Shown here piece by piece: positions 23,462-43,892 of a DNA stretch of 64,000 nt. This DNA is from an uncultured virus (IMG/VR IMGVR_UViG_3300034072_001506) (lineage: Duplodnaviria; Heunggongvirae; Uroviricota; Caudoviricetes): IMG/VR virus record IMGVR_UViG_3300034072_001506; one strand, 5' to 3'. The position numbers were made by a program, and so were the translations under genes. The notes under the pieces are model-generated. The model worked only from the letters and a program-made list of their open reading frames with translations. It was not told where the DNA came from and searched no databases. Every line of letters starts with the position of its first letter. Within the stretch, counting starts at the first letter, position 1.

Positions 23462-24619
23462 TTAGTTGCGGAGGATGATTACCAGATCAGCGGACCAGCT
23501 GGGCGGAGTATCGGCCACTATAGCGAGATAGTCACCATACGCAATAGTTCTATCGCCGGCCACTGGGATGCTAATAGTTCCTAGGGTATCACCTACCGAC
23601 CAAGTAACTGTTCCAATAACCTGTCCGTTTTTCTCAATATCACGGGTCTGGGTTACTGTAGCGGGTTGAGTGGCTCGCACTCGTGAGTTTGAGACGCTAA
23701 TCGTGTAGGGTTGGAGAGCTGGGTTGAGAGGGATCTGAGTATTGTTTGCAGGGCCAACACCTGAGTAGCCTACCGCAATACTTTGCGTGGATGCCTTGGC
23801 GTCTAGTGCTGCTTGTAGACCCGTTACGTCTTGTATTGTGTGGGTATGGACCGCGGATGCTTTGCCATCAAGTGCCACTTGTAGGTTGGTTACTTGTGAG
23901 ATAGCAATAGAGCCCGTGGCGTCAAGTTTGAGATCCAGTGCTGCCTGGGTCGCAATACTAATTGGCTTCTGAGCATCACTCGTATTATTGACGTTGGTGA
24001 TGTTGAGAAAGCTCTTGACGTCAACGTCAGTTAGTTCGCCTGCAGTTCCCGCACCAGGACTTGTGCGACCCAACATTCTGGGGCCGGCGCTTAACTGGAT
24101 ATCAGCAGCCACATGACTGTGATTTGTTGATGCCTTGCCGTCCAGAGCTGTCTGGACTGCTGTACTGATTGGCTTCTGGGCGTCGCTGGTATTGTCCACG
24201 TTATTGAGACCAACCGCTGCCTTGTTGAGGGTTTGGAATGTTTTATCGCCTCTCCAATACTGAGCAGTGGTGCCTGGAGTAATGGCGTCTTCCTTGCCTG
24301 CCAGTGCCGAGACCGCCGCGTTACTCAAAGGCTTCAGGGCATCGCTAGTATTGTTGACATTCTCGAGTTCCAAGAATGTCTTGGCTTGGACCGCAGTCAA
24401 GTTTTGAATTGGTGCTGATGTGGATCCAGTTGCCCTACCAAGTAGACCGGCACCTGGACTTGTTAGTCCACTAGTTGTGATATTGCCTTGATCCACTTTG
24501 TTGTCTTGGGTCAAGTAGAGTTCGTCAAAGTTATTGTTTACTTTGATGAACGCATCACGCAGGCCTTCGCCGTCACCAGCATTGGCGCTGCTACCAATAT
24601 TGATAGTCTGCTTTGCCAT
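23462..24619 (-). CDS. Tail fibre/baseplate-attached protein with repeats
   Basis: N-term MAKQTINIG..ANAGDGEGLRDAFIKVNNNFDELY (like T4 gp9/gp10 N-termini); 3x V(N/D)NTSDAxKP(L/I)S; H.H repeats. Confidence 0.75.
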   Translation of the reverse strand: MAKQTINIGSSANAGDGEGLRDAFIKVNNNFDELYLTQDNKVDQGNITTSGLTSPGAGLLGRATGSTSAPIQNLTAVQAKTFLELENVNNTSDALKPLSNAAVSALAGKEDAITPGTTAQYWRGDKTFQTLNKAAVGLNNVDNTSDAQKPISTAVQTALDGKASTNHSHVAADIQLSAGPRMLGRTSPGAGTAGELTDVDVKSFLNITNVNNTSDAQKPISIATQAALDLKLDATGSIAISQVTNLQVALDGKASAVHTHTIQDVTGLQAALDAKASTQSIAVGYSGVGPANNTQIPLNPALQPYTISVSNSRVRATQPATVTQTRDIEKNGQVIGTVTWSVGDTLGTISIPVAGDRTIAYGDYLAIVADTPPSWSADLVIILRN

Positions 24620-24642: not shown

Positions 24643-27600
24643 TTAACTGATACTTCCGTCCGTGAGAGCAAGATTGCTCGAGACATTGATCTGGTTGTTA
24701 TCTGCGGTTGTAGTAACCACGCTGCTTTGATTATTATCCAGGTCGCCTGATAGATCCCAAATATTAGCGGCTACCTTGGTCAAGGTAACATTGGAAAATC
24801 TCGTGCGAGTAAAGCGACTACTTGGTGTATTGATAATCACGCTGGGTCCAGGGACTATCTCGGTTTGACCAGAGCCAATTTGAGTAATATGAATCTGAAC
24901 ACCAACATTTAACTGAACCGCTGAATTATTTGGAACCACTACCTGATTGGGTCCAGCGTTGGACCTACGAATATATGCTCCAGCGTCGCTGGCCTGGAGA
25001 GTATAGGAAGGTGTAGTTACTGGTGAGACCTTCATTCCCTGGGCATCAACTTGCTTTTGACCCACCCAAGTTCTTGTTCTGCTGAAGTATCGGAACAAGT
25101 AGAATGTCAGACCATTGGGAACAATATTGGGTGCCGTGCTGGAAATCCAAACAATAGGACCGCCCTGTGTTACTTGGAAGTTGACTTGGCGATTACCCAC
25201 AGAGTCCTGTTTGACCGCGATCAACAGTTCACTATAGAGTTCACCACTGGTATTCAGGGGTCCAGGAGCGTAGGAAGTTGCTTCTGGTGTTTTGATTGTC
25301 AGTGTTGCGGAGCCGGTGAGGTTTACCAAGAAGGTATTTCCCGATTTTGGATCAATAACACCATCGGGAACGACTTGGTTATCTTCAGTATAGCGGAGAA
25401 GGATACCACTCGCATTATAGTGACCCACGAAGTTACCTTCGTCAGGCTGAACATCATAAGCCAGTCTTGGTCCAAGAATAAAGTCTTGATCACTGCGTCG
25501 TTTGACACGAGTAAAAGACCATTCGCAATTTCCTTCTTTGTAGATCTTGCTGAACTCTCCATTGTAGTAGAAGTTTACATTGGTGAGTTCCAATCGGTTT
25601 TCTGCTCCGCCTGTATTGCTGTCCGCGATACTGTAGAGACCAACCGTATAATCCCTAATAGTATCAGGTTGCTGAACGGTTACTTGGACCCAAGGTGTCT
25701 TGAGGCTTTCACCCGCATTATTGGGATCGTCAATTGGATTGCCCTGCGGGTCAAGCAATAGGGTCTCGACGTTATTGCCTTCGTCGTCCTGATTGAACAA
25801 CAAAGTCACGCCTGGATCGTCTTCAAAAGCATCGTCGCCCGTGCTGGTCAGGAATTTGGGTCGCCCACCTTCCCACAAGGGAAGAGATGGATTGTTGATA
25901 TTCACGCTGTAGTTTTCTGGGATAATGGAACCAACATTCTCCATTATCAAAACACCACCATTGTGTTCAATACCTTTGAGTAGTGGTGCGCCCGATACCA
26001 AGGTAAAGCTTTCTGGGCTCAACTGTAGACCCGTCCATCCATTTTCAGGCAGACCGCAGTTTTGGAAGACAACTCTGTGTCCACCGGCAATCGTTGCGTT
26101 GTCAATTTTGCCCTGGATAGTACAGTTGAAAAAGTTCACATCTCCACCAAGTTGACCGTTAAGTGACATAACGGTCAAATCGCTTAGGGCTCCCTGTCCT
26201 CGCAGAAAAGAACAGTCCTTGAATGTGGCTTTTCCAACACCCCCAACAATTGCGAAAGTTGGCTGGAATATTGAACTGGGCTGGTCACTGGTATCAATGG
26301 TGATTTTGCTCATTAGCAAGGAATCAACATTGAATAGAATTTGGACATTGCCTTTGATTACAGAGTTGGTAGAACCAAAGAAGCCCTCAATGGCGATATT
26401 TCTCTTGTTCTGAACATCAACATTTTCCTGATACGTTCCACCCAATAGCATAATGGTATAAGTGGTAGTCGTATCATTATTGGGAATTTCACTCAATGCT
26501 TTGTTGATAGTCAGATATGGAGAGTTCAACGAGCCGTTGCCCGTTGAGTCATTTCCGTTCTTACCAACAAAAATGGTGTTCTGAATAGTCTGGAAGAACT
26601 GTTGTACCGATGACCAGACCAAAGTGTTACCTGGACCTTGTGTTAGGAATTGACCACTTGTGCCGCCTGTCGAAGGAAATAGCAGACCATTTAGGGTCAA
26701 AGAGGGTGCCTGTAGGGCCACAGCGGGCGCAGCTAGTGCCACGCTAGTTCCCGGACCACCATTTAGCGCAATGCCCGTCTGTGAAACTCTGATAGAGCTG
26801 GCCGGGGTTATCTCTTGGCTGTCAATCAAAACGCCATTGTTGCCAGAAGAGGTGATCCTGAAGTTCTGAACGTCTAAGTCGCCACCAAGTTGAGGTGTTT
26901 CATCGACCACAACTTCGATTAGGTTGTTGCGGAGTTGTGAAACTGTCAATCGCTTTGGTTGACTATCACTGGCAGCGAGAAAGATAAACTGATCTGCGTT
27001 GGTGATAATTGGTTCAGGGTCCAACTTGGTGAGGTCCAAGTTGACGGTTGGGGCTTCACCTGTTCCAGTTACCGTTATACCAATACCACCAGTGACACCA
27101 CTCACACTACCTGCACCAACTGGTTGCCAGGATAGGTTGGATCCCTGAGCTACCAGAGCAAATGCTCCAACGCCGCCTGGTGGGGCGAAGGCAGCGGATT
27201 GGTTGCTGGAATTACCGACGACAATAGAACCTTGTGCCAGGGTATGACCCAATAGACCATAGGAAATTGTTTGAGTTCCGGTTGCGATCAAGCGACCGTT
27301 TTGATCAAACGTAAAGGTTGGGAACACCAGATTACCAGTGCCGTTACCAATATTGATTCCTTGGATTGGCACGCTGACATCGCTCGCATGACCAGCCGCC
27401 CAAGTAATGGTGTGCTGGATAGCTTCATGTGATATCAAGCGACCCTTGGAGTCAAATGACAACCTAAAATCACCAAGATCACTGTTGTAGGATACTGGGG
27501 CCTGAATAGTATTTGATAGAGTAAAGTTGATTTCAAGTGTGGGGTCAGCCGCACCAACAATTACCGCGTTATCAAATCTATCACTCTGTCCAGCCGCGTC

Positions 27601-27771
27601 ACCAACAAAACTCAAACGAGTATTTTGAATTTTTGTCAGCTCATCACTGGCTTGAAACAGTGCCTGTTGAGTCGCACTGGTGTTGTCCCTAAAACCCTGA
27701 GATGAATTATTGACACCAGGGGTTGGGAACGTGACATTCAGGCTATTGGCTCTATTGCGAACGTCGCTCAT
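24643..27771 (-). CDS. Tail fibre/tailspike with probable beta-helix (depolymerase-like) region
   Basis: IFVGKNGNDSTGNGSLNSPYLTINKAL..GGTYQENV; PQLGGDLDV; C-term YTLQASDAG...WDLSGDL fibre domain. Confidence 0.7.
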   Translation of the reverse strand: MSDVRNRANSLNVTFPTPGVNNSSQGFRDNTSATQQALFQASDELTKIQNTRLSFVGDAAGQSDRFDNAVIVGAADPTLEINFTLSNTIQAPVSYNSDLGDFRLSFDSKGRLISHEAIQHTITWAAGHASDVSVPIQGINIGNGTGNLVFPTFTFDQNGRLIATGTQTISYGLLGHTLAQGSIVVGNSSNQSAAFAPPGGVGAFALVAQGSNLSWQPVGAGSVSGVTGGIGITVTGTGEAPTVNLDLTKLDPEPIITNADQFIFLAASDSQPKRLTVSQLRNNLIEVVVDETPQLGGDLDVQNFRITSSGNNGVLIDSQEITPASSIRVSQTGIALNGGPGTSVALAAPAVALQAPSLTLNGLLFPSTGGTSGQFLTQGPGNTLVWSSVQQFFQTIQNTIFVGKNGNDSTGNGSLNSPYLTINKALSEIPNNDTTTTYTIMLLGGTYQENVDVQNKRNIAIEGFFGSTNSVIKGNVQILFNVDSLLMSKITIDTSDQPSSIFQPTFAIVGGVGKATFKDCSFLRGQGALSDLTVMSLNGQLGGDVNFFNCTIQGKIDNATIAGGHRVVFQNCGLPENGWTGLQLSPESFTLVSGAPLLKGIEHNGGVLIMENVGSIIPENYSVNINNPSLPLWEGGRPKFLTSTGDDAFEDDPGVTLLFNQDDEGNNVETLLLDPQGNPIDDPNNAGESLKTPWVQVTVQQPDTIRDYTVGLYSIADSNTGGAENRLELTNVNFYYNGEFSKIYKEGNCEWSFTRVKRRSDQDFILGPRLAYDVQPDEGNFVGHYNASGILLRYTEDNQVVPDGVIDPKSGNTFLVNLTGSATLTIKTPEATSYAPGPLNTSGELYSELLIAVKQDSVGNRQVNFQVTQGGPIVWISSTAPNIVPNGLTFYLFRYFSRTRTWVGQKQVDAQGMKVSPVTTPSYTLQASDAGAYIRRSNAGPNQVVVPNNSAVQLNVGVQIHITQIGSGQTEIVPGPSVIINTPSSRFTRTRFSNVTLTKVAANIWDLSGDLDNNQSSVVTTTADNNQINVSSNLALTDGSIS

Positions 27772-27783
27772 GCGATCTCCCTT

Positions 27784-29988
27784 TTATTTGTCTCCCGGTG
27801 GAAACTTGTAGTATTTACTCTCAGACTGAAGACTGGTATCAAAAGTCGTAAAAGCAATCGTTGGTGTATCCAAGTTGTCAGGACCATCAAATGTCGTGAT
27901 TTCCGGGAATCCAAATTCAGTTCCATCAAAAGTGGTTGAAGCAAAACCATCACTAATGAGGAGATATCTGTCCACCTCTATTGTGATTCCTTGAAGGTCA
28001 TCATTTATACCAGCAGTATCGAGGGCTCTGACTATTGCTGGACCACTTCCTGCTCTGACATGAGCCAATTCAATGGCGCATTGGTATCCCAGGATAGTGT
28101 CGGGTCTGCCGCGTTCCTGTTCACTCATCATCCAGAGTGGCAAACCTTCTCGACCGGAGACCCCATACCCAGGAAGAGCTCCAGGCAATCTATTGTTGCG
28201 GTTTATGAGATCCGCCCTCAGATTCTTTACACTATTGGGATAGTAATTACTCATATTTTCGGTGAGGTTCCATTTGGGAATAGCCACAGGTTCCTGACCT
28301 GGATTGTATCTATTCAATGGTTCCTCTTGTCCAAGAGTATTGAAACCACCTGCGCCTTCCATGGGATCGAGAATTCCCAAATAGATCACATCGTAGAGAT
28401 GAACGCCCTCTGGGCTTCTTGCTCTTGCGCTGTGAACTTTGCCTATTCTCAACTTTGTTGGACGATGGTAATCCTTGAGACGATCAATTAGGTCACCTGT
28501 TTGATAGTTGATACCATTGGTTAGCAGGATCCTGAACTGACGGCTCTTGCCAAAATACTGATCGATTTCCCTATAGACTTGATCACGACCAAGAACCGTC
28601 AAGCGATCGGGTCCTTCCGCACCTGCTCTATTGACATATCTGACAATTTTTATTTCAGTGCCACTTGTTGGTATAGAACCAGATGGGAAGATAATAAAAT
28701 CCTCTCGCAATTCAGTTATCCTGGAAAGTGTTCCTCTATAAATTACGCCATCGAGGAATACATCAATACTATCACCAAGACGCCCTCTTGGGACTAGGAA
28801 TTTTGCGTCAGTGCCATTTCCAAAGTAAACTCTCTGACTTACCGAATAATCAGGTCTTGCTTCTGGCAAAGTTCCCCATACCCATTTGGCGATTTTCTGT
28901 CGTGCCGGGCCAGGGACATTGATCTGGAGACTGGTCACCGAGTCAGCAGCAAAGATCGACCTAATCGTAATGGAAAAGGTTCTCTCACTGGCAATTGTGG
29001 ATGGTCGAACCGCACCTGTCTCGTTATTGATGAAAACAACTCTGGCTTCCACAATGAATTCAAAGGTTCTAGTAACCGCCACATAGGGACATTTTCCAAT
29101 AATCAGGCCAGAAGAAGCATCCAGCAACAAACCTTCTGGTAACGGACGACTTCCTGGTGTGATAGTATAGTTGATGACTTGAGTTTCTGTCGCAGTTCCA
29201 GACGATACTTGATATTGAGGAACAGCTCTGACACCAAAGTGACTGGGATAAGTCTCAAAAGTAGAGCCCAGAGAACCCGCTGGAGTTTCCCAGCGAACCA
29301 CATCAGATAGGCGGGCATCCAGAACAATATCCTGGCCGATGGTGAGTCTGTAGACCTTCTCTGACGTTCTAGGAGATCCTTCTCCTCGAGGATTGCTCTG
29401 GAGATCATCTGGGTCTCGAGCATAGACTCTAAAGTAATAGTCTCCTGGAATATTATTGGTGATTGTTGGGGATCCAACTATTCTTCCAAACTGATCGATC
29501 TCTAGTCCATTTGGTAATCCACTTTGGGAGCCTGGTGGACCCCTGTAACCAACTGCTTTGAATTCAAGAGGATCCTGATCTGGATTCACTATATCCAGTT
29601 GAATGACCACATTGGATCCTCGATTTACTGATCCTAGATTCTGAATACCAGTAGGCGAAGACCAGCTTTGCTCCTCGTCACTTATGTCGACTATGAATCT
29701 AAAGCTTCTATCATAGGTTCTACTTGAGGATCGGAGAAATACTCTGAATACAACTGGATAGCTGTCTTGGTCTTTGGGTAGTGCTCTGACTGTACCTTGG
29801 ATTCTCAGGGTTCCTGCATTGTAGAAAAGTCCTGGAGGTAATTGTCCACCAATCAGTTCCAAACGATCCAAATCGTTTCTAGCATCTGGGGAGATTTCAA
29901 GACTAATAGATGCCTGATCGCCACGTCGCCAGGGCTGTCCATTGTTCAATAGATTTCCAGAAGGTGGTGAGAACCAAACAGCGACCAT
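27784..29988 (-). CDS. Virion/baseplate protein with three complete putative Ig (He_PIG-like) domains
   Basis: LPPGL/LPNGL/LPEGL units each followed by F.(F)RV...R.F/Y strands. Confidence 0.7.
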   Translation of the reverse strand: MVAVWFSPPSGNLLNNGQPWRRGDQASISLEISPDARNDLDRLELIGGQLPPGLFYNAGTLRIQGTVRALPKDQDSYPVVFRVFLRSSSRTYDRSFRFIVDISDEEQSWSSPTGIQNLGSVNRGSNVVIQLDIVNPDQDPLEFKAVGYRGPPGSQSGLPNGLEIDQFGRIVGSPTITNNIPGDYYFRVYARDPDDLQSNPRGEGSPRTSEKVYRLTIGQDIVLDARLSDVVRWETPAGSLGSTFETYPSHFGVRAVPQYQVSSGTATETQVINYTITPGSRPLPEGLLLDASSGLIIGKCPYVAVTRTFEFIVEARVVFINNETGAVRPSTIASERTFSITIRSIFAADSVTSLQINVPGPARQKIAKWVWGTLPEARPDYSVSQRVYFGNGTDAKFLVPRGRLGDSIDVFLDGVIYRGTLSRITELREDFIIFPSGSIPTSGTEIKIVRYVNRAGAEGPDRLTVLGRDQVYREIDQYFGKSRQFRILLTNGINYQTGDLIDRLKDYHRPTKLRIGKVHSARARSPEGVHLYDVIYLGILDPMEGAGGFNTLGQEEPLNRYNPGQEPVAIPKWNLTENMSNYYPNSVKNLRADLINRNNRLPGALPGYGVSGREGLPLWMMSEQERGRPDTILGYQCAIELAHVRAGSGPAIVRALDTAGINDDLQGITIEVDRYLLISDGFASTTFDGTEFGFPEITTFDGPDNLDTPTIAFTTFDTSLQSESKYYKFPPGDK

Positions 29989-30034: not shown

Positions 30035-30057
30035 CAGGAGCCAACTTGGAGGATATC

Positions 30058-31293
30058 ATGGGAATCAGATTCAAAGGTCGTTTTATACCAAAGGGGGCGC
30101 TTAAGTTTGCCAACGTTCCTCCAGCTGCTCCAGTATTCATAACCGCTCCTAGCATTTCCCCTGTCTCTGGTATTTCTGGAGAAACCCTATTTACGGGCAA
30201 CGACGGGACTTTTACCAATGGTGTCATCACATCAAGACAGTGGTTGATCAATAATGTCGTAGTAGCTTCTGGACCCTCCTTTACTCCTCTTGTTCCAGGT
30301 TCACTAGTCTATAGAGTAACGGTTGTTGGAAACGGTGGATCAGTAGTTGGTGAATCCGCTGCGGTTACTGTTGATCCCGCTCCACCCCCAGTATTCACTG
30401 TTGATCCCAGCATTACTCCAACAGCAGGTATTGTTGGTGTAACCGCTTACACTGGTAATGACGGTGTCTTCACGGGCGGCAATGTTATCGCAAGAGATTG
30501 GTATGTGGGCACAGAGTTTGTTGGCTCTGGATCGACCATTACTCCTTCAATAGTTGGTAACCTAACCTATAGAGTAACTGTTCTAGGCAACGGTGGAACA
30601 ACTATTGCGAATTCACAGCCAGTCAGTGTTGAGCTTCCAGATCCTCCAGCGTTCACAAGAACTCCTAGCGTCACACCTTCTTCGGGTCTAATGAATGCCA
30701 CCTTTACTGCTGATCCCGGCGCGTGGACTGGTGCCACACGGGTGGTAAGAGAATGGCTTGTAAATGGTAGAGTTCTCGCTGGGGCAAACGACATCACGGT
30801 CGTTCCAATGAAGGTAGGCCAATTGGTCTATAGAGTCACCCTTTCCAACGCGGCTGGCACAGTGGTAGAATCGTCCACTCCAGTAACGGTAAATGTCAAC
30901 CCAGCAATTGCCCAGCCCCCCACATGGATTACTGGTTCGGGTTACTTTGGAAGCTTTGAAGAAGGAACGGAATTCTCAGAACTCTTCAATGCCAGCGACC
31001 CAAATGGTGGCGCTCTAGAATACAGTGTTATTGGTGGAACATTGCCACCAGGTCTCAGCTTGAACATTACAACTGGTGAACTATTTGGAACGATTGGTGC
31101 GGTAGAAGATACCACCAACTTTAATTTCACCCTCAGGGTAATGGATGAAACCAATCTGACCGCTGACCGTCAGTTTGAAATCCAGATCCAGAACGTCAAG
31201 AGCGATGTTTTCTGGGATACTCCAGAAGGTTCGCTAGGTGAACCTAGCGCAGGCTCACTATTCTCAACCAAACTAGCAGCTAGGTCGGTATAA
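30058..31293 (+). CDS. Ig-repeat fibre protein ending in the first three strands of an Ig domain
   Basis: Three PVF.T.PS repeats, one complete He_PIG-like unit, then VFWDTPEGSLGEPSAGSLFSTKLAARSV-stop; GGAGGA RBS. Confidence 0.75.
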   Translation: MGIRFKGRFIPKGALKFANVPPAAPVFITAPSISPVSGISGETLFTGNDGTFTNGVITSRQWLINNVVVASGPSFTPLVPGSLVYRVTVVGNGGSVVGESAAVTVDPAPPPVFTVDPSITPTAGIVGVTAYTGNDGVFTGGNVIARDWYVGTEFVGSGSTITPSIVGNLTYRVTVLGNGGTTIANSQPVSVELPDPPAFTRTPSVTPSSGLMNATFTADPGAWTGATRVVREWLVNGRVLAGANDITVVPMKVGQLVYRVTLSNAAGTVVESSTPVTVNVNPAIAQPPTWITGSGYFGSFEEGTEFSELFNASDPNGGALEYSVIGGTLPPGLSLNITTGELFGTIGAVEDTTNFNFTLRVMDETNLTADRQFEIQIQNVKSDVFWDTPEGSLGEPSAGSLFSTKLAARSV

Positions 31294-32417
31294 TGACAGA
31301 CATAAAATATGAAATCATCAGTGGCAGCCTTCCAGTAAATGTCACCCTAAATGAAGACACCGGTGAGATCATTGGTGATATTGACTTTGCCAACATTGGT
31401 CTAGGCCCAGAATGGGTAAGCCCCCCTTCTGGTAAGTTGGGTGATTTCCTTGAAGGTGATACCGTCAATATTACATTCAACGCAAGATATGGATCCAACG
31501 ACCAGTTGGCGCTAATGGGTGTGGTAAACAACGGAACCTTTCTACCAAGAGGCTTGGTATTTGATCCTGATACTGGCGTTCTCTCTGGTGTTTGTGCCGA
31601 CCTTCTAGCCGATGAAGCGATCGGCAACGTTGATCCCCCAATTTGGCAAACCAGATTTGGTACACTGGCAAATCTAGACGAAAGCGAAACAGTGAGCCTT
31701 TCAGTAGCCGCTACTGCCCAAGCTGGTAAAACGCTATCAAGATACGCTGTTGTTAGCGGCGGTCTTCCTTGGGGTCTTCAGCTTTCTTTTGAGACAGGTT
31801 CGATAACAGGAACCACCGCAGACTTGAAGAGTCCTGGTGTGACGATCGAAGTTCCAAAACTTCCAGCACCGGCGTTTGTTCATCCAGCAGGCAACATCGC
31901 AACCTACAATGAAGGTGAAAGTTTTACTGGATTGTTTGTAAATGCTACTCCAGCAGTTGATCGCCAGATGGTCAAGTATGTGATTACCAGAGGCTTCTTG
32001 CCGCGCGGTGTGATTCTCAATACTGTTTCTGGTGAGGTCTCTGGAACGATTGCGGAAATGCTCGGCATAGAGGAACCTCCCTTCCTCTTTACGGATCTCT
32101 ATCCAACGTTCTCTCCAGATGTTGTGGTAGACGGAGTAAGTCAGACTTCTAGCAATCTTGGCTCGTATTCTCGAGGAACGGCTGTTTCGGCTCAGTTCGC
32201 TGCTACTCCAACTGGCTCTAGAACTATCATGACCTATAGTTTAGAATCTGGTGGATTGCCTTTTGGTCTTACACTTTCTTCCACTGGATTGATCAGCGGA
32301 ACAATAAGTAATCAAGCAACGAATAGTGCGCCATCTGGCACATACAACTTTACCGTTAGGGTAACAGATAACCAGTATGGTTTTGCTACTCGATCTTTTA
32401 ACATTACTGTTCTCTAA
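31293..32417 (+). CDS. Putative Ig (He_PIG-like) repeat protein, four of five units lacking the final beta-hairpin
   Basis: Five LP.(G/N)(L/V)...G...G units; only the last has YNFTVRVTD...RSFNITV. Confidence 0.75.
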   Translation: MTDIKYEIISGSLPVNVTLNEDTGEIIGDIDFANIGLGPEWVSPPSGKLGDFLEGDTVNITFNARYGSNDQLALMGVVNNGTFLPRGLVFDPDTGVLSGVCADLLADEAIGNVDPPIWQTRFGTLANLDESETVSLSVAATAQAGKTLSRYAVVSGGLPWGLQLSFETGSITGTTADLKSPGVTIEVPKLPAPAFVHPAGNIATYNEGESFTGLFVNATPAVDRQMVKYVITRGFLPRGVILNTVSGEVSGTIAEMLGIEEPPFLFTDLYPTFSPDVVVDGVSQTSSNLGSYSRGTAVSAQFAATPTGSRTIMTYSLESGGLPFGLTLSSTGLISGTISNQATNSAPSGTYNFTVRVTDNQYGFATRSFNITVL

Positions 32418-32426
32418 GGAGTAATC

Positions 32427-33725
32427 ATGGCAGTTTTTCCTTTTACAATTAGAGCCACTGACTCTGAAGGCTCCTTTGCTGATCGTCAGTTCTCAATTAC
32501 TGTTCGCAATAGCCGAGTTGAGCGTTTTATGGCTGTTACGGGTGCAGATGCCTACACCAGCGCAGATGGCCAGTCCTGGGTCTTGAGAGCCGGTATGGGT
32601 GGTTCGTCATGTGCCTATGGAAACAATATGTGGCTGATTGGTCCTATCAGTATTGGTGGTCTACGTCGTTCAACAGACGGTGTGAACTATACATATATTG
32701 ATCCGGCCTCCATGACCTTTACCCACCTGAACGATCCAAGAACTGGAACCAATGCCGCTGGTAACCCAAGCATGTTCCTTGGTAGGATTAGTAAAATCCG
32801 ATTCTATAATGGTAGGTTCTGGTTCTGGCAGAGCCAGACTATTAACACCAGTAACGTGGGAAGACAGTCCCTCAGAGTGTGGTATTCGGAAAACGGCATT
32901 GATTGGTTTGGTCGTACACTTCTTCATAACAATAACAGTGCTACCAACTTTATCAACAACATGCAAAGCTCTGGTGAATTTATTACCGAAGACAATGGAA
33001 CCCTGTTTATTGGTTCAGCTGTAGGTGGTGGTTCTGATCCTATTCTACACCCTGATTTTGGAACAGGTGGAACACCTCTTGGTTTCCAGTCAACTGACAA
33101 CGGAAATACGTGGGCCCCGGTGCGCAGAGCCGGTCTTGCCAACTCTCTCAATCTCAACAACGCCAACATTACACTCACCAGAGTAAATGGATTCTATCTT
33201 GCTTACGGTATGAACAATAACTTTGGTTTTGGTACCCTATCCAACACCTATGCTTATAGCACAGACGGAAGCAACTGGACTCAGGGTGATTTCTCAGTTG
33301 GAACAGGTCAATCCGCAACCAATATTGCTAATCTGCTAAACGGAACTCGTCCGAACGGCTTTATCTATGCTAACGGTCTGATTTATGTTTCCATGGCAGC
33401 AACTGCTAGCTCAAGTCCTGGTTACCTACCAATGCTTGTAAGTGCCGACGGTATCAGCTGGACTCTGCGAACCAATATTATTGACTTCAGTCGTACCACT
33501 GGCTCAGGTTCTAACACAGGTGACTGGGGACGAGGAAATATCATTTATAGAAATGGTATTTTCCTACTAGCTCATCAGGGTGGTGGTTCAGCGGATACTC
33601 TAGGATCGGGCGGAGTAAGCGTTTTCAGCGGGGGTCTTCGTTTCTCGACCAACGGTAGCACTTGGACTACGGTAAACCGCTTTGACAATACTGCTACTCT
33701 TTTCCTAGACGCAGCAATGATCTAA
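32427..33725 (+). CDS. Fibre tip/adhesin-like beta-propeller protein with N-terminal Ig beta-hairpin
   Basis: Starts FPFTIRATDSEGSFADRQFSITV; repeated S.DG..W (BNR/Asp-box-like) motifs. Confidence 0.7.
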   Translation: MAVFPFTIRATDSEGSFADRQFSITVRNSRVERFMAVTGADAYTSADGQSWVLRAGMGGSSCAYGNNMWLIGPISIGGLRRSTDGVNYTYIDPASMTFTHLNDPRTGTNAAGNPSMFLGRISKIRFYNGRFWFWQSQTINTSNVGRQSLRVWYSENGIDWFGRTLLHNNNSATNFINNMQSSGEFITEDNGTLFIGSAVGGGSDPILHPDFGTGGTPLGFQSTDNGNTWAPVRRAGLANSLNLNNANITLTRVNGFYLAYGMNNNFGFGTLSNTYAYSTDGSNWTQGDFSVGTGQSATNIANLLNGTRPNGFIYANGLIYVSMAATASSSPGYLPMLVSADGISWTLRTNIIDFSRTTGSGSNTGDWGRGNIIYRNGIFLLAHQGGGSADTLGSGGVSVFSGGLRFSTNGSTWTTVNRFDNTATLFLDAAMI

Positions 33726-33730
33726 AGACA

Positions 33731-33760
33731 AATGAGCCGGGGTCTCGGCCCCGGCTCATT
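33731..33760. terminator. Hairpin between convergent genes
   Basis: AATGAGCCGGGG-tctcgg-CCCCGGCTCATT perfect inverted repeat. Confidence 0.75.
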
Positions 33761-34999: not shown

Positions 35000-35221
35000 T
35001 CAAAAGCTCAACTTGAGCAGCATCGCGCTCTGATGGTTTTTAAAACAAAAGCCAATTTGAAAATCTGTTGGGTCATGACCCAACAAACTCACAGAGACTC
35101 GATCTGGTGAAAATTGGTCTAGGACTGCTCTTTGAAGGACCAAAATACTTTCCTTGGAACCTTCAAAGAACACCCAGACGCCATCTTCCAATTCAACGGT
35201 GGCAGAGTAATTGGTCATCAA
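35000..35221 (-). CDS. LFKL-WG family small protein
   Basis: FCFKNHQSAMLLKLSF. Confidence 0.65.
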   Translation of the reverse strand: MMTNYSATVELEDGVWVFFEGSKESILVLQRAVLDQFSPDRVSVSLLGHDPTDFQIGFCFKNHQSAMLLKLSF

Positions 35222-35655
35222 TCACACCCACTACTTCCTCCACCACTATCGTAGGAACTTGAACCACTATCGTAGGAACTAGAGCCGCTGTCATATGAAC
35301 TTGAACCGCTACTCAGCCCACTGTAATAGGTATCCGAGAACCACGAAGTATCCACACTTGAGTCACCAGACCTGCGTGACGAGTCTGCGTAACTCGCTGA
35401 GCTGGTAGTCTTGGCCGACTTTGACGAGCCAGTAGGCTTAGACCGGTCGCGATTTCTACCACCTGGTCCAAAAGAACTTTGAGCCTTTACCTTAGCGACA
35501 TCTTTGGCAAAAGCCGAACGATATGCTGCCCTATCCTCTTTTTCAGCGCGAAGATTGGCCTGGCGCTTTTCTTCTTGTGCTGAAGCCATGCGATGGAAAC
35601 TGGCAATGACGACTAACACCAGACCAATACCTACAATAAACCAAAATGATCCCAT
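35218..35655 (-). CDS. Membrane-anchored protein with Ser/Gly-rich tail
   Basis: N-terminal TM; SGSSSYD x3 encoded by a 21-bp repeat at 35242-35304. Confidence 0.7.
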   Translation of the reverse strand: MGSFWFIVGIGLVLVVIASFHRMASAQEEKRQANLRAEKEDRAAYRSAFAKDVAKVKAQSSFGPGGRNRDRSKPTGSSKSAKTTSSASYADSSRRSGDSSVDTSWFSDTYYSGLSSGSSSYDSGSSSYDSGSSSYDSGGGSSGCD

Positions 35656-35702: not shown

Positions 35703-35909
35703 TTAATCGTCAGACACGTTGGACTTTTGGTTGGCGAGCAGGTATTCCAGATCAGCCACAGATACCTCGACCAGCTGGACGGCCTCGTTCTCAAAGAAAC
35801 CGTTGTCCTGTCCCTCGTCGGAGAAATGTGGGATCAGATATGTGACTTGGCGCGACGGTCCCTCAATGGCTCCTTTGATGCGCTCCTCAACTGTCTGTTT
35901 GCGAGGCAT
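35703..35909 (-). CDS. Hypothetical protein
   Basis: TAATG-coupled ORF. Confidence 0.5.
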   Translation of the reverse strand: MPRKQTVEERIKGAIEGPSRQVTYLIPHFSDEGQDNGFFENEAVQLVEVSVADLEYLLANQKSNVSDD

Positions 35910-37645
35910 TAAACTTCCTTCCAGCCCTGCGCCTCGAGGTACGCCTTGACTTCGTCCCAGGTGCCTTCGCTGCTGTAGCTGAAGCCGGTCTCAGGGTCTT
36001 CACCCTTGCGCTTAAAAACATCCTGAGTGATGTCATCAACATTCCAGTCGCCGCCCCACGTTGCCATGAGCTCGTCGAGCATCGCGCTGGGCAGATCGAT
36101 ATTGTCGATCAGCTTACCGTCGCGATCCAGGTAACCCATGCGGATCCTGATACCCGTGAAGTCCCGGCGAACGAACTGGAAACCAAGACCAGTGATCTGC
36201 GCTTCGCGGGGACGATAGCGATCATACCACCGGATATCCAGCGGTAGATTGGCTTTGTTGAGTTCGTAGGTTTCCCATACCTCTCGACAGAAGTCAGCCC
36301 ACTGATCGCCACTGTCGGCTTTGATCTGCGCTTCAGCTTTGCCCGGAGGGGGCGGAGGAGGGGCCACAGCAGCAGGAGCCGCAGGCAGCGGAGCAAAGCT
36401 ACCCGCACGAGCGTTCATAGCAGCAGGACCCCTCATGGGCGCCGGATGCCCAGGGTTATGCGCCGGGAATGGAGAAACGGGAGCAGGTTGTGGAACTGGT
36501 AGATCGAACGGAGCCGGATATGATGCTTCATCGTCGATGATTTCCAGATTCTCTCCCTCGTCCTCATCGTCGATATCCAGCATTTCACAAAGTTCAGCGT
36601 GGAGATCATCGTCCGTGTAGGTAAAATAATCGGTCAGAACCGTGTTACCATCATCGAAATGCTCATAGAGGAGCCAAATTGCGTGACTGCGCTCCAGCGT
36701 GACCCAGTTTCCGGCCTGGAGTTCTCGCTTGACCTTTTTGTCGTCCTCCCATGTGGAGTCACACTGGTCGAGACCTTTCAACCCGGCGGACCGTTGCGTA
36801 ATAAAAGCCGCCTGGACTGCGGGCTGGAGGTTGACCAATTCCGGCCATTGGCCGGCCATCAGAGGCAAAGCTGCCTGCATACCAGGCGCGTTGAACATGC
36901 CGCTGGGTGGTAGCTTGGGAAAACTAATGGGTGACATGACACCACCCGGTCCTACGCCGATCACATTGGTGTTGGGTCCCAGTGCTGCGCCCAGTGCTGC
37001 CATGAGATTTGCCGGACCACTAGCGGCGGCCGCCGCTGCCAATGCGCCTGGAGCCGGAGGAGTTGGCGCGACCTGCGGAGGGTTCCAATTGGGATCGAGT
37101 GCCGGAGGAAGCGGGGGATTGACTGGTGAGGTCGGTGTCTGAGGCGCTGGACCATTGCTGGTATCGTTGAGAAAATCTGTCAGCGTCTGATCGTGCTTGA
37201 AGCCGTATTTGGCCAGCGCAATGTGGATTTTCAGCACATTGTCGTAGGGAGAAGCAAAATCGTTCTCCTGGGTTTCGTCAGCCAGGTCATCGGGCAGACA
37301 GTGAAAAAACTGGAGGATCCATTGTTGGTGTTGGTCATGGACATAACCAGTGCGGTGCCAGCGATCCTGGGGCTCGAACACATAGCTGATACCAGTGGTC
37401 AGACCGTTCAGAGTATCCCCATGCTGGCTTATGCCGTAAACCCACTGGTCGCGCTCATAAATCCCACAATCCTCATCGTCACCGATAGTGTAGACTGTGC
37501 GGTTCAGTTTGCTATTGAAAAACTCACGAACGTTTTCGCCATTTAGAGAGAACTTCTGAACTCTCTTCCAGTCCTTTTCCGTAGTTGGAACGTTGGAACA
37601 GACGAAGTAATGGACGATTCGCTCTTTGATTTCTGCGCTACTCAT
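35909..37645 (-). CDS. Multi-domain hypothetical protein with Pro/Ala-rich linkers
   Basis: Long ORF; GGAGA RBS before MSSAEIK. Confidence 0.65.
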   Translation of the reverse strand: MSSAEIKERIVHYFVCSNVPTTEKDWKRVQKFSLNGENVREFFNSKLNRTVYTIGDDEDCGIYERDQWVYGISQHGDTLNGLTTGISYVFEPQDRWHRTGYVHDQHQQWILQFFHCLPDDLADETQENDFASPYDNVLKIHIALAKYGFKHDQTLTDFLNDTSNGPAPQTPTSPVNPPLPPALDPNWNPPQVAPTPPAPGALAAAAAASGPANLMAALGAALGPNTNVIGVGPGGVMSPISFPKLPPSGMFNAPGMQAALPLMAGQWPELVNLQPAVQAAFITQRSAGLKGLDQCDSTWEDDKKVKRELQAGNWVTLERSHAIWLLYEHFDDGNTVLTDYFTYTDDDLHAELCEMLDIDDEDEGENLEIIDDEASYPAPFDLPVPQPAPVSPFPAHNPGHPAPMRGPAAMNARAGSFAPLPAAPAAVAPPPPPPGKAEAQIKADSGDQWADFCREVWETYELNKANLPLDIRWYDRYRPREAQITGLGFQFVRRDFTGIRIRMGYLDRDGKLIDNIDLPSAMLDELMATWGGDWNVDDITQDVFKRKGEDPETGFSYSSEGTWDEVKAYLEAQGWKEV

Positions 37646-37706
37646 ACTCGATCTCCACAAAGATAGCCAATGGTCTAACACCTTATTCAAAAAGAGCAAG
37701 TGAGAT

Positions 37707-38012
37707 TTATGGCAAAATGGTGCGAGGAATACCGGTCTTTGGGTTCATGACGACGAGAATCTTTTTTCGATCCTCGAAGGCATCCACCTCAACGACCCAA
37801 GACTCATCATTTTCCTTGGTGACGATGCGAGCTGTTTTGGTTGGGCCGTCTATCTTAATAGCAAAATTGGCTAGACTCGTTAGAATCTCAAGCGTTCCAT
37901 AATCAGCATCAGGCATATGGCGCTGCCTGAGACGTTCATAGGCGTGGCGATATGGCTCGCGCTTTTTAGCAAGTGATTTGCGTTGCGCAGGGCTGAGCCT
38001 ATCTTCTCTCAT
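37707..38012 (-). CDS. Hypothetical protein
   Basis: ATGA-coupled ORF. Confidence 0.5.
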   Translation of the reverse strand: MREDRLSPAQRKSLAKKREPYRHAYERLRQRHMPDADYGTLEILTSLANFAIKIDGPTKTARIVTKENDESWVVEVDAFEDRKKILVVMNPKTGIPRTILP

Positions 38013-39476: not shown

Positions 39477-39664
39477 TTGATCTTTGCCATGCTGTAGAAG
39501 AATAGCCATACCAAAACCAAAATTGCCACTGAAGCAACCGGCATCAAAACGTAGAACAAGAAATCGGGATGCCTAGAAGCGAATACAGATACGCCAATCA
39601 ACGTAGCTAGTCCCACAATGACAAGCAAAGTTTGCTTGGTGGCCAGTATCGCTTCTTTGCTCAT
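39473..39664 (-). CDS. Small two-TM membrane protein
   Basis: Two hydrophobic segments, ATGA-coupled on both sides. Confidence 0.55.
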   Translation of the reverse strand: MSKEAILATKQTLLVIVGLATLIGVSVFASRHPDFLFYVLMPVASVAILVLVWLFFYSMAKIK

Positions 39665-40914
39665 TTCAGGGCTTCCCTAATCCGGTCGTTTGACTCTGAG
39701 ATTCCAAGAAGTCTCAAACAATCCCAGATAGGTGGGCTTGTCTTGCTTCCTGTGAGGGCCATACGCAAAGGTGCTATCGCTTTGCCCAGTTTAATGCCAA
39801 GACCCTCTGCGGCTCCATTTAGGGCATTCATGACGCCATCGTGGTTCCACTCGGCCTGTTCCAGAGACTCACGAACTCTGATGAGGACAAGCTTGTCCTC
39901 ATCAGACAAAGGCTCCGAGAGTTCAATAGGAGACTTGGCCCAAAGAAACATCATGCCGTCAACCAACGCATTCATGTCAGCAGACCGCTCCTTGAGCGAG
40001 TCCATGGCGCCGAGAATCTTGTCGAAGGGCGGGGTTTCAACGCCTCGCTTGTGAAGCTCAGGAAGGATCTTCATGGCCAGGTGATGCGACGGCGTCTGCC
40101 TGATATAGTGGCCGTTGATGTGCGCGAGCTTTTTCTTGTCAAGCCGCGCAGGGTTGCGGCCCACATCCTTGATGTCGAACCACTCCACTGCCTGCTCCAG
40201 GGAGAAGATTTCGTCGTTGCCGTGGCCCCATCCCAGCTTGGCCAGATAGTTGACCATTGCCTGGGGCAGGATGCCCATTTCCTGATAGTCTGTGACGGCT
40301 GCGGCGCCTGTGCGCTTGGATAGCTTTTTGCCGTTCTCGTCCATGATCAGCGGAATGTGACCATAAGCTGGGATGGGCCAACCCATGGCACGGTAGATGC
40401 TCATTTGGCGGAAGGCGTTATTGAGGTGGTCATCGCCGCGGATCACGTGGGTTACGCCCATGTCGTGATCATCAACCACGACAGCCAGCATATAGGTGGG
40501 CGTTCCGTCCTTGCGGAGGATCACAAAATCGTCAATATCCTGGGGCCACGTCACAGTGCCCTGAACGAGGTCGTTGATCGTCTGAGAGCCTTTGATACCC
40601 TTGATCCGGATTGCTCCATCGTCCAGGTATGCGTCCTGGCTGTTGAGCAACGCCATAGCGACTTCAACATGGCGATCCTTGTTGGCGCTTTGATATTTGG
40701 GGTGCTCGTCTGCATTCAATCCCAACCAGGCCATTCCTGCGTGGATTGCGCTGACTGCCTCTGGGGTGTTTCGCTCCTTGTCAGTGTCTTCGATACGCAG
40801 GAGAAACTTGCCTCCCATGCGCTTGGCGTAGAGCCAGTTGAACAAGGCAGTGCGAGCTCCTCCAATATGGAGGTAGCCCGTGGGCGATGGAGCAAAGCGT
40901 GTCACAATAGTCAT
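39661..40914 (-). CDS. gltX: Glutamate--tRNA ligase (compact form)
   Basis: RFAPSPTGYLHIGGARTALFN, LRIEDTD, VIRGDDH, KKLSKR, anticodon domain LRMALTG. Confidence 0.95.
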   Translation of the reverse strand: MTIVTRFAPSPTGYLHIGGARTALFNWLYAKRMGGKFLLRIEDTDKERNTPEAVSAIHAGMAWLGLNADEHPKYQSANKDRHVEVAMALLNSQDAYLDDGAIRIKGIKGSQTINDLVQGTVTWPQDIDDFVILRKDGTPTYMLAVVVDDHDMGVTHVIRGDDHLNNAFRQMSIYRAMGWPIPAYGHIPLIMDENGKKLSKRTGAAAVTDYQEMGILPQAMVNYLAKLGWGHGNDEIFSLEQAVEWFDIKDVGRNPARLDKKKLAHINGHYIRQTPSHHLAMKILPELHKRGVETPPFDKILGAMDSLKERSADMNALVDGMMFLWAKSPIELSEPLSDEDKLVLIRVRESLEQAEWNHDGVMNALNGAAEGLGIKLGKAIAPLRMALTGSKTSPPIWDCLRLLGISESNDRIREALK

Positions 40915-40966
40915 AGGGCCACTCTGCATTCAAAGTGGGTCCTTGTCTACCGCTTTGTGGATCGCG

Positions 40967-41221
40967 TTACAGCGAGTTCACATTATCCCCAATGAACTCG
41001 TCACTGTCCTCGAGATCACCCTCGGGTGTGAGAAGCCAGCTGGTCAGAATCAGACCATTGTTGCCATATTCAACAACATAGATGTCACCAGCCGCGGTTG
41101 GGATCTCGTTGAGGAGATCCTTGGCTTCCCGATGCGCAAGCTCTTTGCTATTGACCTGTTCAATCACCCCACTGTTGGGGATAAAAGCAGCAAACATCGT
41201 AATCTCCGATCCTTGTTCCAA
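40967..41221 (-). CDS. Hypothetical acidic protein
   Basis: ORF downstream of promoter at 41229-41260. Confidence 0.45.
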   Translation of the reverse strand: MEQGSEITMFAAFIPNSGVIEQVNSKELAHREAKDLLNEIPTAAGDIYVVEYGNNGLILTSWLLTPEGDLEDSDEFIGDNVNSL

Positions 41222-41228
41222 CTCATTA

Positions 41229-41260
41229 GAGTTAGCATAGATAGGTGGGTCGTCAACCAG
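41229..41260 (-). promoter_or_regulatory. Early promoter cassette
   Basis: CTGGTTGAC-N15-GCTAACTC. Confidence 0.55.
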
Positions 41261-41292
41261 TTTCCTAGTTGACGACCCAGCAAACTGCCTTT

Positions 41293-41613
41293 TTAGCTGT
41301 TGCTAACGCGCACCGCTGCCACACCGTCCAGCGAGGGCGACAGCGCCAGCCAGCCGCGCTTTGCGTCCACCAGGCCGACCTTCTGACCAGCGACCAGGTT
41401 CAGACCGTCGAAACCGCGCAGGCTGAACTTGACCGACGAAACATCCTTGCGCGTCAGCTTGAGCAGCTTTTCGCCCTTGGGGAGAGCTTTGCCGCAGACC
41501 CGATCGGTGGGCTTGATCATGAGGATGCCGTCTTCCATCTTGACGCGGACCTTGGTAGCGTCCTTGACAAAAACCTGGGTTGCGGCTGCATTCAGGTTCA
41601 AAGTGACTCGCAT
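41293..41613 (-). CDS. Early basic beta-rich protein, paralogue of 54404-54778
   Basis: NLN...ATKVRV...DG.L..KPTDR....LPKGE.L..L..K....F...GW.AL. Confidence 0.7.
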   Translation of the reverse strand: MRVTLNLNAAATQVFVKDATKVRVKMEDGILMIKPTDRVCGKALPKGEKLLKLTRKDVSSVKFSLRGFDGLNLVAGQKVGLVDAKRGWLALSPSLDGVAAVRVSNS

Positions 41614-41650
41614 CTTGTTTCTCCTAGTTGCCTCAGCGCCCTGTGCGCTT

Positions 41651-41693
41651 CCGATAAACCAGTTCTAGCAGAAACAGGATAGATGTCAACCAG
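41651..41693 (-). promoter_or_regulatory. Early promoter cassette
   Basis: CTGGTTGAC-N15-GCTAGAAC. Confidence 0.7.
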
Positions 41694-41766
41694 TATTTTG
41701 AATAAATAGGTGTGCTTCGCGGGATTGCCGTCCCCAAGCACTCTAATAGGAAAGGACCCTATCAGC

Positions 41767-42441
41767 ATGTCTACTTATCAACCCTTCATCTACATCATCG
41801 GCTGGACTGATCTCAATATCTGGTATATCGGAGCGCGTTATGCTCGTGAAACCCAGCCTATTGACTTGTGGACTACTTATTTCACCAGTAGTAAACACGT
41901 TGAGGAAGTTCGCGAACATTGTGGAGAACCAGATTACTTTGAGTCATTTGTAATGCCTGATCATGATGTGGTTCGAACGTTAGAAACAGCAATCATCAAA
42001 GAATTCGAACTACACAAAAATACACGATGGCTTAATAAAGGTTGTTTTAAAACCTATCATGCGTCGCCTGAAGAGAGATCAGAGATGATGAAACGACATT
42101 TTGAAGATCCGGCGGCTTTGGAACGCAACAGAGCAAAGAGACGTGAAGTCAATAGTCGTCCTGAAATCAGAGAAATGCGCCGCCAGAGCGCAGAACGACT
42201 AAATTCTGATCCAAGTTATAAGAAATCTTTGAGCGATGGGCAGAAGCGACGATGGTCTGACGCAGATAGACGGGCTGAGTTTTCTCTTAAAAGTAAAGAA
42301 TTCAGCAACCGACCTGAAGAAATACAGGCTCGGAAAGATCGTGCCGCTGCTTTATGGGCAGATCCTGTCTATCGGGAAAAGATATCAGCTAGAGTGAAGG
42401 AAAGCTGGGAGAAGCGACGTTTGAAGAAGTCTAGCCAGTAA
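41767..42441 (+). CDS. GIY-YIG-like free-standing (homing-type) endonuclease
   Basis: FIYIIGW...WYIGARY...YFTSS...E...WLNK; basic helical C-term repeats; ATAAATA at 41702. Confidence 0.7.
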   Translation: MSTYQPFIYIIGWTDLNIWYIGARYARETQPIDLWTTYFTSSKHVEEVREHCGEPDYFESFVMPDHDVVRTLETAIIKEFELHKNTRWLNKGCFKTYHASPEERSEMMKRHFEDPAALERNRAKRREVNSRPEIREMRRQSAERLNSDPSYKKSLSDGQKRRWSDADRRAEFSLKSKEFSNRPEEIQARKDRAAALWADPVYREKISARVKESWEKRRLKKSSQ

Positions 42442-43238: not shown

Positions 43239-43892
43239 ATGACAACCCATCTTTACATCAAACGTCACAAGATTACCGGACTAAAGTATTTTGGTAAGAC
43301 TCGCAAAGACCCATATTCATATCTTGGATCGGGGAAATATTGGATTCGTCATATCAAACTCCATGGGAAAGAATTTGTTGAGACTGAACAAGTCTGGTCC
43401 TTTGATGATCTCAACGAATGTTCTAGATTCGCTATAGAATTTTCCAAATCCAACAATATTGTTGAGTCTGACCTTTGGGCTAATCTCAAAATAGAGAACG
43501 GGTTGGATGGGGGATCCTTCCCAACCGGCAAACCATTATCAGTTGATCATAGAAACAACATTTCTATGAAGTTAAAAGGTCGTAGGTTTTCAAAAGAAAC
43601 TTTGGACAGGATTTCAGAGAAGCTTTCTGGTAGGACATTTTCAGAAGAGCATCGTAAAAATATATCAAAATCTTGTCAAGGGAAGCCTAATCCACCAGTT
43701 TCTTTAGAGACCCGTAAAAAGTTGTCAGAGAGTAGGATTGGTAAAAAGCACTCCCAAGCTACCATAGAAAAACTGTCTCTTAAGAAGAAAGGAGAAAAGA
43801 ATCCGTTCTTTGGAAAACGGCATTCAGAAGAAACAAAGAAGAAAATGTCAGAGTCGGCCAAACTTCGTAGAGCTGCTCAGCCCAATAAATAG
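43239..43892 (+). CDS. GIY-YIG homing endonuclease with NUMOD3-like repeats
   Basis: LYIKRHKITGLKYFGKT...YLGSG; SEEHRKNIS, HSEETKKKMS, NPFFGKRH. Confidence 0.85.
   Translation: MTTHLYIKRHKITGLKYFGKTRKDPYSYLGSGKYWIRHIKLHGKEFVETEQVWSFDDLNECSRFAIEFSKSNNIVESDLWANLKIENGLDGGSFPTGKPLSVDHRNNISMKLKGRRFSKETLDRISEKLSGRTFSEEHRKNISKSCQGKPNPPVSLETRKKLSESRIGKKHSQATIEKLSLKKKGEKNPFFGKRHSEETKKKMSESAKLRRAAQPNK

Follow-up and report, generated by a model that had tools for sequence, protein, structure and literature searches.

Parts of one He_PIG immunoglobulin-like unit distributed over three adjacent genes of giant myophages: a candidate virion-appendage cassette possibly joined by β-strand complementation

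The 64,000 nucleotides of IMG/VR virus record IMGVR_UViG_3300034072_001506 (an uncultured member of the Caudoviricetes; the whole stretch is referred to as the window) are part of a giant myophage genome, in which three consecutive genes, hereafter A, B and C (positions 30058 to 33725), contain successive parts of one immunoglobulin (Ig)-like unit of the He_PIG family: strands A-A'-B close protein A, strands C-D-E open protein B, and an F-G-like hairpin opens protein C. The split-unit pattern is real and far from chance. Our favoured reading, held tentatively, is that the three genes form a cassette for a virion appendage, conserved and transcribed together in Atu_ph07-like giant myophages, and that its products may be held together by β-strand complementation, hairpin step included, and not by covalent continuity. 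Protein A would supply an anchor and a stalk, made of its conserved N-terminal part, the Ig repeats and a complete He_PIG unit, and B a shaft of He_PIG units devoid of F-G; the 28-residue tail of A (A-A'-B) and the 31-residue head of B (C-D-E) would fold as one unit, the synthesis of both proteins being coupled through their overlapping stop and start codons. In a second step, the invariant hairpin of C would complete the F-G-less units of B, also the one at the A/B junction, with the F-G strands that they lack, resulting in one shaft bearing several propellers.

Gene A (30058..31293, plus strand, 411 aa; He_PIG at 5.3e-13 and 49.7 bits) is preceded by the Shine-Dalgarno sequence GGAGGA (30048..30053, plus strand), 5 nt before the ATG at 30058; this start (MGIRF...) is preferred, and relatives have the same one. 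Its product begins with a conserved MGIRF anchor, which is followed by three Ig repeats of the PKD-like type, a complete He_PIG unit and a half unit. Gene B (31293..32417, plus strand, 374 aa; He_PIG at 3.7e-25 and 88.6 bits) lies in the -1 frame of gene A and encodes a head half unit, three F-G-less units and one complete unit; the TAA of gene A (31291-31293) and the ATG of gene B (31293) have one base in common within a TAATG overlap (31291..31295, plus strand), and an in-frame TAG stands four codons upstream of that ATG. The simple reading of TAATG is translational coupling of A and B by termination-reinitiation and not frameshifting, because the junctions have no common slippery site and the TAG closes the B frame upstream. 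Gene C (32427..33725, plus strand, 432 aa), which encodes an N-terminal hairpin and a β-propeller, starts 9 nt after the TAA of gene B (32415-32417), with its Shine-Dalgarno sequence AAGGAG (32416..32421, plus strand) placed between both codons. B and C share a frame in the window, with one TAA and three codons between them; across the related cassettes described below the spacing is 9-17 nt or an overlap, often out of frame, and thus B and C are separate genes encoding separate proteins. The three genes are co-oriented and flanked by the divergent gene of a 734-aa He_PIG protein and by a convergent gene; a hairpin with a 12-bp stem located between gene C and the latter (33731..33760, no strand) is likely a bidirectional terminator closing the A-B-C operon.

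Proteins A and B pass the gathering cut-off of Pfam He_PIG (PF05345, 24 bits). The Pfam scan covered 20 window proteins, a part of the window ORFs, and gave no match for C at E ≤ 0.1; PHROGs had no family for A, B or C, and a DNA-level search of the phage collection returned no match. The whole He_PIG profile, with all seven strands, is covered only by the units at residues 285-382 of A and 282-373 of B. The units were then placed on a hidden Markov model (HMM) of 100 positions made from 21 complete units of the family (unit-HMM), together with a truncated-unit HMM. The complete unit of A (30910..31203, plus strand) matches unit-HMM positions 2-100 with an independent E-value (iE) of 1.3e-35, and the tail that follows (31207..31290, plus strand; residues 384-411), which closes the protein with VFWDTPEGSLGEPSAGSLFSTKLAARSV, holds strands A-A'-B only and matches truncated-unit HMM positions 9-32 at an iE of 0.84. 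The A tails are individually weak (iE 0.015 to 5); those of 9 out of 10 A proteins match truncated-unit HMM positions 8/9 to 32/33, the tail of L004a stopping at 18. The B head (31293..31385, plus strand; residues 1-31) comprises strands C-D-E, its residues 5-31 corresponding to unit-HMM positions 39-65, and the heads of all 11 B proteins analysed fall at positions 37/39 to 62/66. It is followed on the plus strand by the F-G-less units 2 (31410..31598; residues 40-102), 3 (31632..31823; residues 114-177) and 4 (31866..32057; residues 192-255), matching only unit-HMM positions 6-65, 3-66 and 4-66, respectively, and by the terminal complete unit (32136..32411, plus strand), which matches positions 7-95. 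Residues 3-29 of C correspond to unit-HMM positions 72-98, and the hairpins of 12 out of 12 C proteins to 71/72 to 98/99. The B and C registers are reproduced within one or two positions among these 11 and 12 proteins, and the A tail, the B head and the C head are consecutive, non-overlapping parts of the unit (about 4-32, 38-66 and 72-98). A six-frame scan of the 64-kb window (stop-to-stop frames of at least 40 aa) recovered unit matches only in A, B, C and the 734-aa neighbour, with an iE of 5.6e-4 for the B head and 1.3e-4 for the C head. The strand-by-strand description of the three proteins proposed by a first-pass annotation of the window is correct according to these registers, and its count for B, four F-G-less units (the head and three internal ones) with only the last unit complete, is also borne out.

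Twenty distinct A-B-C cassettes were found in giant-phage contigs, drawn from collections of viral and metagenome sequences as well as from Agrobacterium phage Atu_ph07 (490 kb) and Sinorhizobium phage Phosso (469 kb), both of them cultured. The three genes and their borders recur unchanged in L001, a viral contig of 436 kb whose B protein is 90% identical to that of the window. The A/B split occurs at the same strand boundary in 17 cassettes and the two genes are fused in one (L009); no A gene was seen in the other two, L005b and L014, the latter lying at a contig end. In all 17 split cassettes the A stop codon overlaps the B ATG, by 1, 4 or 8 nt, and 14 out of 14 B homologues (34-100% identity) start at the same strand C. 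Some genomes carry the cassette repeatedly, as tandem double cassettes (L003, L004, L006 and L017) or with the order A-B-C-B-C (L005). The A/B split is ancient and selected, not an error. Hairpin-led propeller genes follow every F-G-less array with visible context, the distant fused L009 included, and their number varies with the size of the array: two C genes are present in the three cassettes with 6, 8 or 11 F-G-less units, and only one in each of the 17 with 4 or 5 (3/3 vs 0/17, Fisher p = 0.0009, uncorrected for relatedness).

Atu_ph07 gp239, gp240 and gp241 and Phosso XYS97786/85/84 represent the same A-B-C cassette, with the same tail/head split and hairpin. The window B is ~30-35% identical to its counterparts in both phages, and the window C is 33% identical to that of Phosso over residues 1-174 and 53% identical to that of Atu_ph07 over residues 1-57 only. 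The deposited start of Atu_ph07 gp240 is ~25 codons too late (L011 9409-10500; 187408-188499 in the record), as an ATG 75 nt upstream overlaps the gp239 stop codon (ATGA) and restores the C-D-E head MTTLPSPYPIKYSLINGELPEG... The products of all three genes are listed in the published virion proteome of this phage (PMC6102473, Data_Sheet_1): gp239 (15.8 kDa) with 3 peptides, gp240 (36.3 kDa) with 2 and gp241 (43.7 kDa) with 6. This evidence concerns the Atu_ph07 homologues and not the proteins of the window itself, and it lends support to the first-pass interpretation in so far as the three homologues are virion proteins. In the same data, gp239 was recorded in 10 gel bands (1, 4-12), including bands 5 and 6, where gp240 and gp241 peak (PMC6102473), a spread which could reflect smearing or SDS-stable complexes. 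The available portion of that article makes no mention of the A/B split (PMC6102473).

The wider family sheds light on the joint between A and B. A full HMMER search with B yielded 3544 matches, mostly ordinary He_PIG arrays. Some others are long single chains in which an A-like N-terminus (MRIxGxKP...) precedes several complete units, an array of 9 to 19 F-G-less ones and exactly one complete unit. In one of them, P0095, the B head aligns at residues 501-526, within the first F-G-less unit of the chain (466-526); the junction unit is also part of one chain in P0074/L009 and others. Because they are contiguous in these fused relatives, the A tail and the B head are taken as the two halves of one unit, and it is highly probable, judging from homology, that they form a shared unit in the split proteins as well. 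Under the usual Ig topology, strands A and B of protein A would pair with strands E and D of protein B. Either the A/B split represents a gene fission or the fused form a fusion. The first-pass annotation had likewise proposed a domain shared by A and B, and had regarded a single fused ORF in relatives as counter-evidence; A and B are indeed fused in one distant lineage, but since its units still lack F-G and C genes persist, the fusion strengthens the shared-domain reading. L009, the sole fused form with visible context, has units without F-G followed by two hairpin-led propeller genes. Other architectures include a head-first B with 14 F-G-less units (P0086), and P0072, which begins with C-D-E-F-G, so the boundary between strands B and C is a recurrent break point, also in a unit keeping its F-G. 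F-G-less units thereby constitute a distinct type of repeat. Among the longer proteins, the only candidate B-C fusion was P0071, a fibre protein composed of similar propeller blades, which is not a fusion; this result is weak evidence of absence.

Protein C combines a nearly invariant head with a variable body. The head (32427..32525, plus strand; residues 1-33) consists of the F-G-like hairpin, with strands at residues 3-11 and 17-25 in the AlphaFold2 model (pLDDT 73, pTM 0.77 for the whole of C), and a short linker. All 39 C homologues (25-100% identity) share the same MAVFPF-type N-terminus, 22 of the first 33 columns of their alignment being conserved at 90% or above, and the mean pairwise identity falls from 0.87 over residues 1-33 to 0.36 over the remainder (39 sequences, 741 pairs). 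At conserved residues, identical codons nevertheless make up a similar fraction in the head (0.42) and in the remainder (0.40; 66 pairs, 12 genes); synonymous sites are thus equally diverged in both regions, and the conservation of the head is due to selection on the protein. Recombination, gene conversion or an RNA/DNA element were ruled out on the same codon fractions as causes of this conservation, and the strong protein-level selection also counters the idea of the hairpin as a vestige of recombination. Strand F of the hairpin is invariant on both faces (T7, R9 and T11; F4 and F6), which is not seen in ordinary F-G hairpins of this family, as the last units of B themselves vary at these places. 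The first-pass proposal of the hairpin as an adaptor gains from these figures, and a role in docking is likely. The body (32526..33722, plus strand) contains seven Asp-box-like (BNR-like) motifs, S-x-D/N-G-x-x-W/Y, and Foldseek with the C model retrieved the sortilin Vps10p, GH74 and Ycf48 propellers with a probability of 1.00 and TM values of 0.25-0.47; PF13088 is precomputed for 6 of the 39 homologues, the window C having no match. The best explanation for C is a predicted receptor-binding or glycan-binding Asp-box propeller. On the other hand, the notion of exchangeable tips put forward in the first-pass annotation found no support: all 14 hairpin-led ORFs of a metagenome scan carry the same propeller body and none of them a different one, the other 17 motif matches corresponding to internal F-G strands of ordinary complete units, and only one C gene is present in the closest relative, whose 436-kb genome is complete. 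In complete genomes of relatives, C-type genes were found only inside cassettes.

The donation of the C hairpin to the F-G-less units of B, with several sockets per shaft and the branched fibre envisaged in the first-pass annotation, is a plausible but tentative proposal. It fits because the units of B lack positions 67-100 and C carries 72-98, because the F-G-less units keep their core, with strand C unformed in the AlphaFold2 monomer, and because C genes rise in number with array size. The hydrophobic core positions of complete units are all kept in the F-G-less ones (120 F-G-less vs 47 complete units), and AlphaFold2 forms strand C of B only in the complete unit, its confidence (pLDDT) being 65-85 for the F-G-less units vs ~90 for the complete one. 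The C hairpin is far more conserved than the sockets, as would be expected if a single plug had to fit several different ones; the A tail and the B head are only averagely conserved (0.57 and 0.56 vs 0.87). A search of solved structures with the B profile found no close relative, the best being 4m03 (E 0.003). Nonetheless, several points weigh against the proposal. We infer both physical contacts and their stoichiometry. Socket positions are not clearly more conserved in F-G-less than in complete units, and Trp occupies the LP-x-G position in 52 of 130 F-G-less vs 4 of 51 complete units (40% vs 8%), where it could cover the open face without any partner. The idea that a Glu peculiar to the F-G-less units forms a salt bridge was dropped, as the same Glu is found in the complete units of A. 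There is a single C gene for four sockets in the window, and one C gene in the complete 436-kb genome of the closest relative; moreover, chains with up to 19 F-G-less units (P0072) would need many plugs. Every array closes with one unit complete in cis, for which the socket model gives no explanation, and since P0072 has its F-G in cis, the A/B joint itself needs no hairpin in trans. Finally, the Atu_ph07 and Phosso cassettes are not beside baseplate genes, and Atu_ph07 is described as having capsid-associated whiskers as well as tail fibres (PMC6102473), so that the cassette proteins may sit on either fibre or whisker.

Alternatively, the split might be non-functional, reflecting a sequencing or assembly error, a decaying pseudogene, or a polyprotein that arises through programmed frameshifting between A and B and read-through of the stop codon between B and C. 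B does lie in the -1 frame of A, and only one TAA and three codons separate B and C within the same frame in the window; nevertheless, 17 cassettes are alike at 30-90% protein identity in independent assemblies and in two cultured phages, B and C are out of frame or overlapping in many of them, and the Atu_ph07 virion data contain three separate entries of 15.8, 36.3 and 43.7 kDa (PMC6102473). Programmed frameshifting and read-through are in turn rejected in view of the upstream TAG, the lack of a slippery heptamer common to the junctions and the strong Shine-Dalgarno sequence of C itself. The artefact or polyprotein reading is thus close to refuted. Another option is a three-chain domain, in which only the junction unit would be completed in trans, from A (A-A'-B), B (C-D-E) and C (F-G) at 1:1:1, the other F-G-less units being self-sufficient five-strand modules. 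Gene order and HMM registers yield exactly one unit from three termini, every piece being a chain terminus, and the junction unit of P0072 is complete when an A tail is added to its C-D-E-F-G in cis; the enrichment in Trp suggests that the internal F-G-less units cope alone, and the B heads in the 14-sequence alignment are without Trp at the LP-x-G position. However, the L009 junction unit resembles the other F-G-less units and two C genes follow it, the C gene count tracks array length and not the number of junctions, and B heads score at least as well on the truncated-unit HMM as on the complete-unit HMM. Besides, the plug of a single socket could co-evolve with it, making near-invariance unneeded when the A tail and the B head themselves are only averagely conserved. 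We consider this arrangement distinctly improbable.

A rather unlikely explanation is that the F-G-less units are stand-alone repeats building a shaft, their open faces being buried by oligomerisation (e.g., in a trimer) or by neighbouring units, and the C hairpin docking elsewhere, either by edge-strand augmentation on the complete unit that closes B or on a different virion protein. Single-chain arrays of 3 to 19 units always end in one complete cap unit, the hydrophobic pattern is kept and Trp enriched in the F-G-less units, and AlphaFold2 is moderately confident in them when alone; the C-terminus of B and the N-terminus of C also adjoin on the mRNA. Furthermore, three B homologues of 509-544 aa (P0006, P0008 and P0012) have a binding domain of their own right after the last complete unit, CBM-like in two of them and of the F5/8 type C (PF00754) in P0012. 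The longest contig given for P0012 and that given for the C homologue P0050 both measure 7440 bases, so that the two may lie on one contig, which would also suit a shaft of this kind. Against it, the exact match between the missing positions 67-100 and the 72-98 carried by C would be a coincidence, the monomer model leaves strand C of the F-G-less units unformed, and the number of C genes correlates with array length. Strand complementation including the hairpin step is preferred to these alternatives.

Compared with known systems, the cassette resembles both donor-strand complementation and the N-terminal anchors of receptor-binding proteins (RBPs), and is a member of neither as defined. Chaperone-usher pili (Pap/Fim) are built from Ig-like units lacking C-terminal strand(s), filled by the N-terminal extension of another subunit. 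The acceptor units described here also lack their C-terminal strands, and the N-terminus of C has the pattern of the missing ones, a likeness of sequence register only; unlike in the pili, two strands (the F-G hairpin) and not one are absent, the acceptors stand in tandem in one chain, the donor belongs to a propeller protein and the whole is set in a virion. Among the 20 window proteins scanned with Pfam, no family of chaperones or ushers was found. Branched phage devices with multiple RBPs, such as CBA120 TSP1-4 or G7C gp63.1/gp66, follow the rule of a conserved N-terminal anchor and a variable C-terminal receptor binder. C likewise has a conserved N-terminus and a variable body, the constraint being at the protein level, and the cassettes are duplicated within genomes and their homologues are virion components; its anchor, in contrast, is a hairpin of 30 residues with homology to strands from the repeat of its partner, and A, B and C are devoid of the T4 gp10-like domain PF07880, which has a weak match only in the neighbour at 23462-24619. 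A and B, which pass the Pfam cut-off, resemble the He_PIG and cadherin-like Ig arrays of bacterial adhesins (SraP modules, PDB 4m03), and differ from them in that most units lack F-G, one unit is divided between two genes and the context is a phage virion. Canonical Asp-boxes read S-x-D-x-G-x-T-W, and six of the seven C motifs are one residue shorter; the propeller likeness combines seven motifs and the high Foldseek probability with low TM values. A literature search outside subscription journals found no such split gene cassette and neither strand complementation nor He_PIG in phage fibres, and the cassette would be, as far as we know, the first example in nature of a virus routinely encoding one small β-sandwich unit across gene borders.

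Among the other products of the window are a tail sheath protein (phrog_12249, 5.7e-94), fibre proteins and one resembling T4 gp9/10, together with a Glx-tRNA synthetase and homing endonucleases. The 734-aa protein (27784-29988, minus strand) contains three He_PIG units, all complete, and its C-terminus (...KYYKFPPGDK) is conserved; its gene is divergent beside the cassette in the window, L001 and L003-L006, whereas the Atu_ph07 and Phosso homologues lie elsewhere in the genome, away from the cassette, and carry the annotation serine proteinase / S8 peptidase. For the window protein, Pfam gave no peptidase domain, and no close relative was found among solved structures. Next to it, a 1042-aa protein (24643-27771, minus strand) with a pectinesterase-like (β-helix) region (Pfam 1.3e-06) and tail-protein PHROG matches, and a 385-aa protein (23462-24619, minus strand), which has phage tail repeats and an N-terminus like that of T4 gp9/10, resemble a baseplate/fibre cluster adjoining the cassette. 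Downstream, the window encodes a class I Glu/Gln-tRNA synthetase-like protein (39661-40929, minus strand; tRNA-synt_1c 2.2e-77 plus an anticodon-binding domain), and shortly downstream of its gene two homing-endonuclease-like ORFs on the plus strand (41710-42441 and 43239-43892; NUMOD3 3.5e-21, phrog_314); a search of the window for tRNA genes gave none. A 145-aa protein (35218-35655, minus strand) combines an N-terminal hydrophobic segment with a C-terminal SSSYDSG repeat ending in GGGSSGCD, and L001 has a counterpart with a similar Ser/Gly/Asp-rich tail. The G+C content is 0.53-0.54 at 36000-38000 and 40000-42000 vs ~0.45 in adjoining stretches, and a 596-aa Pro/Ala-rich ORF without family match (35909-37699, minus strand) lies within the first of these stretches.

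The annotation of these phages can be corrected in two respects, the start of Atu_ph07 gp240 and the "hypothetical" labels of virion proteins, and the presence of the cassette in two cultured phages makes the proposal directly testable. Should only the A/B step be true, the conserved joint formed by a split domain, together with the overlap of stop and start codons, would be a case of co-translational assembly. A possible, if doubtful, extension is a viral form of donor-strand complementation free of chaperone and usher, in which a 30-residue universal plug would build a bottle-brush with 4 to about 20 propellers and a second split-domain joint would couple the shaft to the anchor. If both contacts are true, a 30-residue tag and its socket would have been defined from sequence alone, and the pair could serve as a protein-assembly tool; giant myophages of this family would then possess a new way to assemble and multiply receptor-binding modules, with a fibre made wholly of one Ig unit dealt over three genes.

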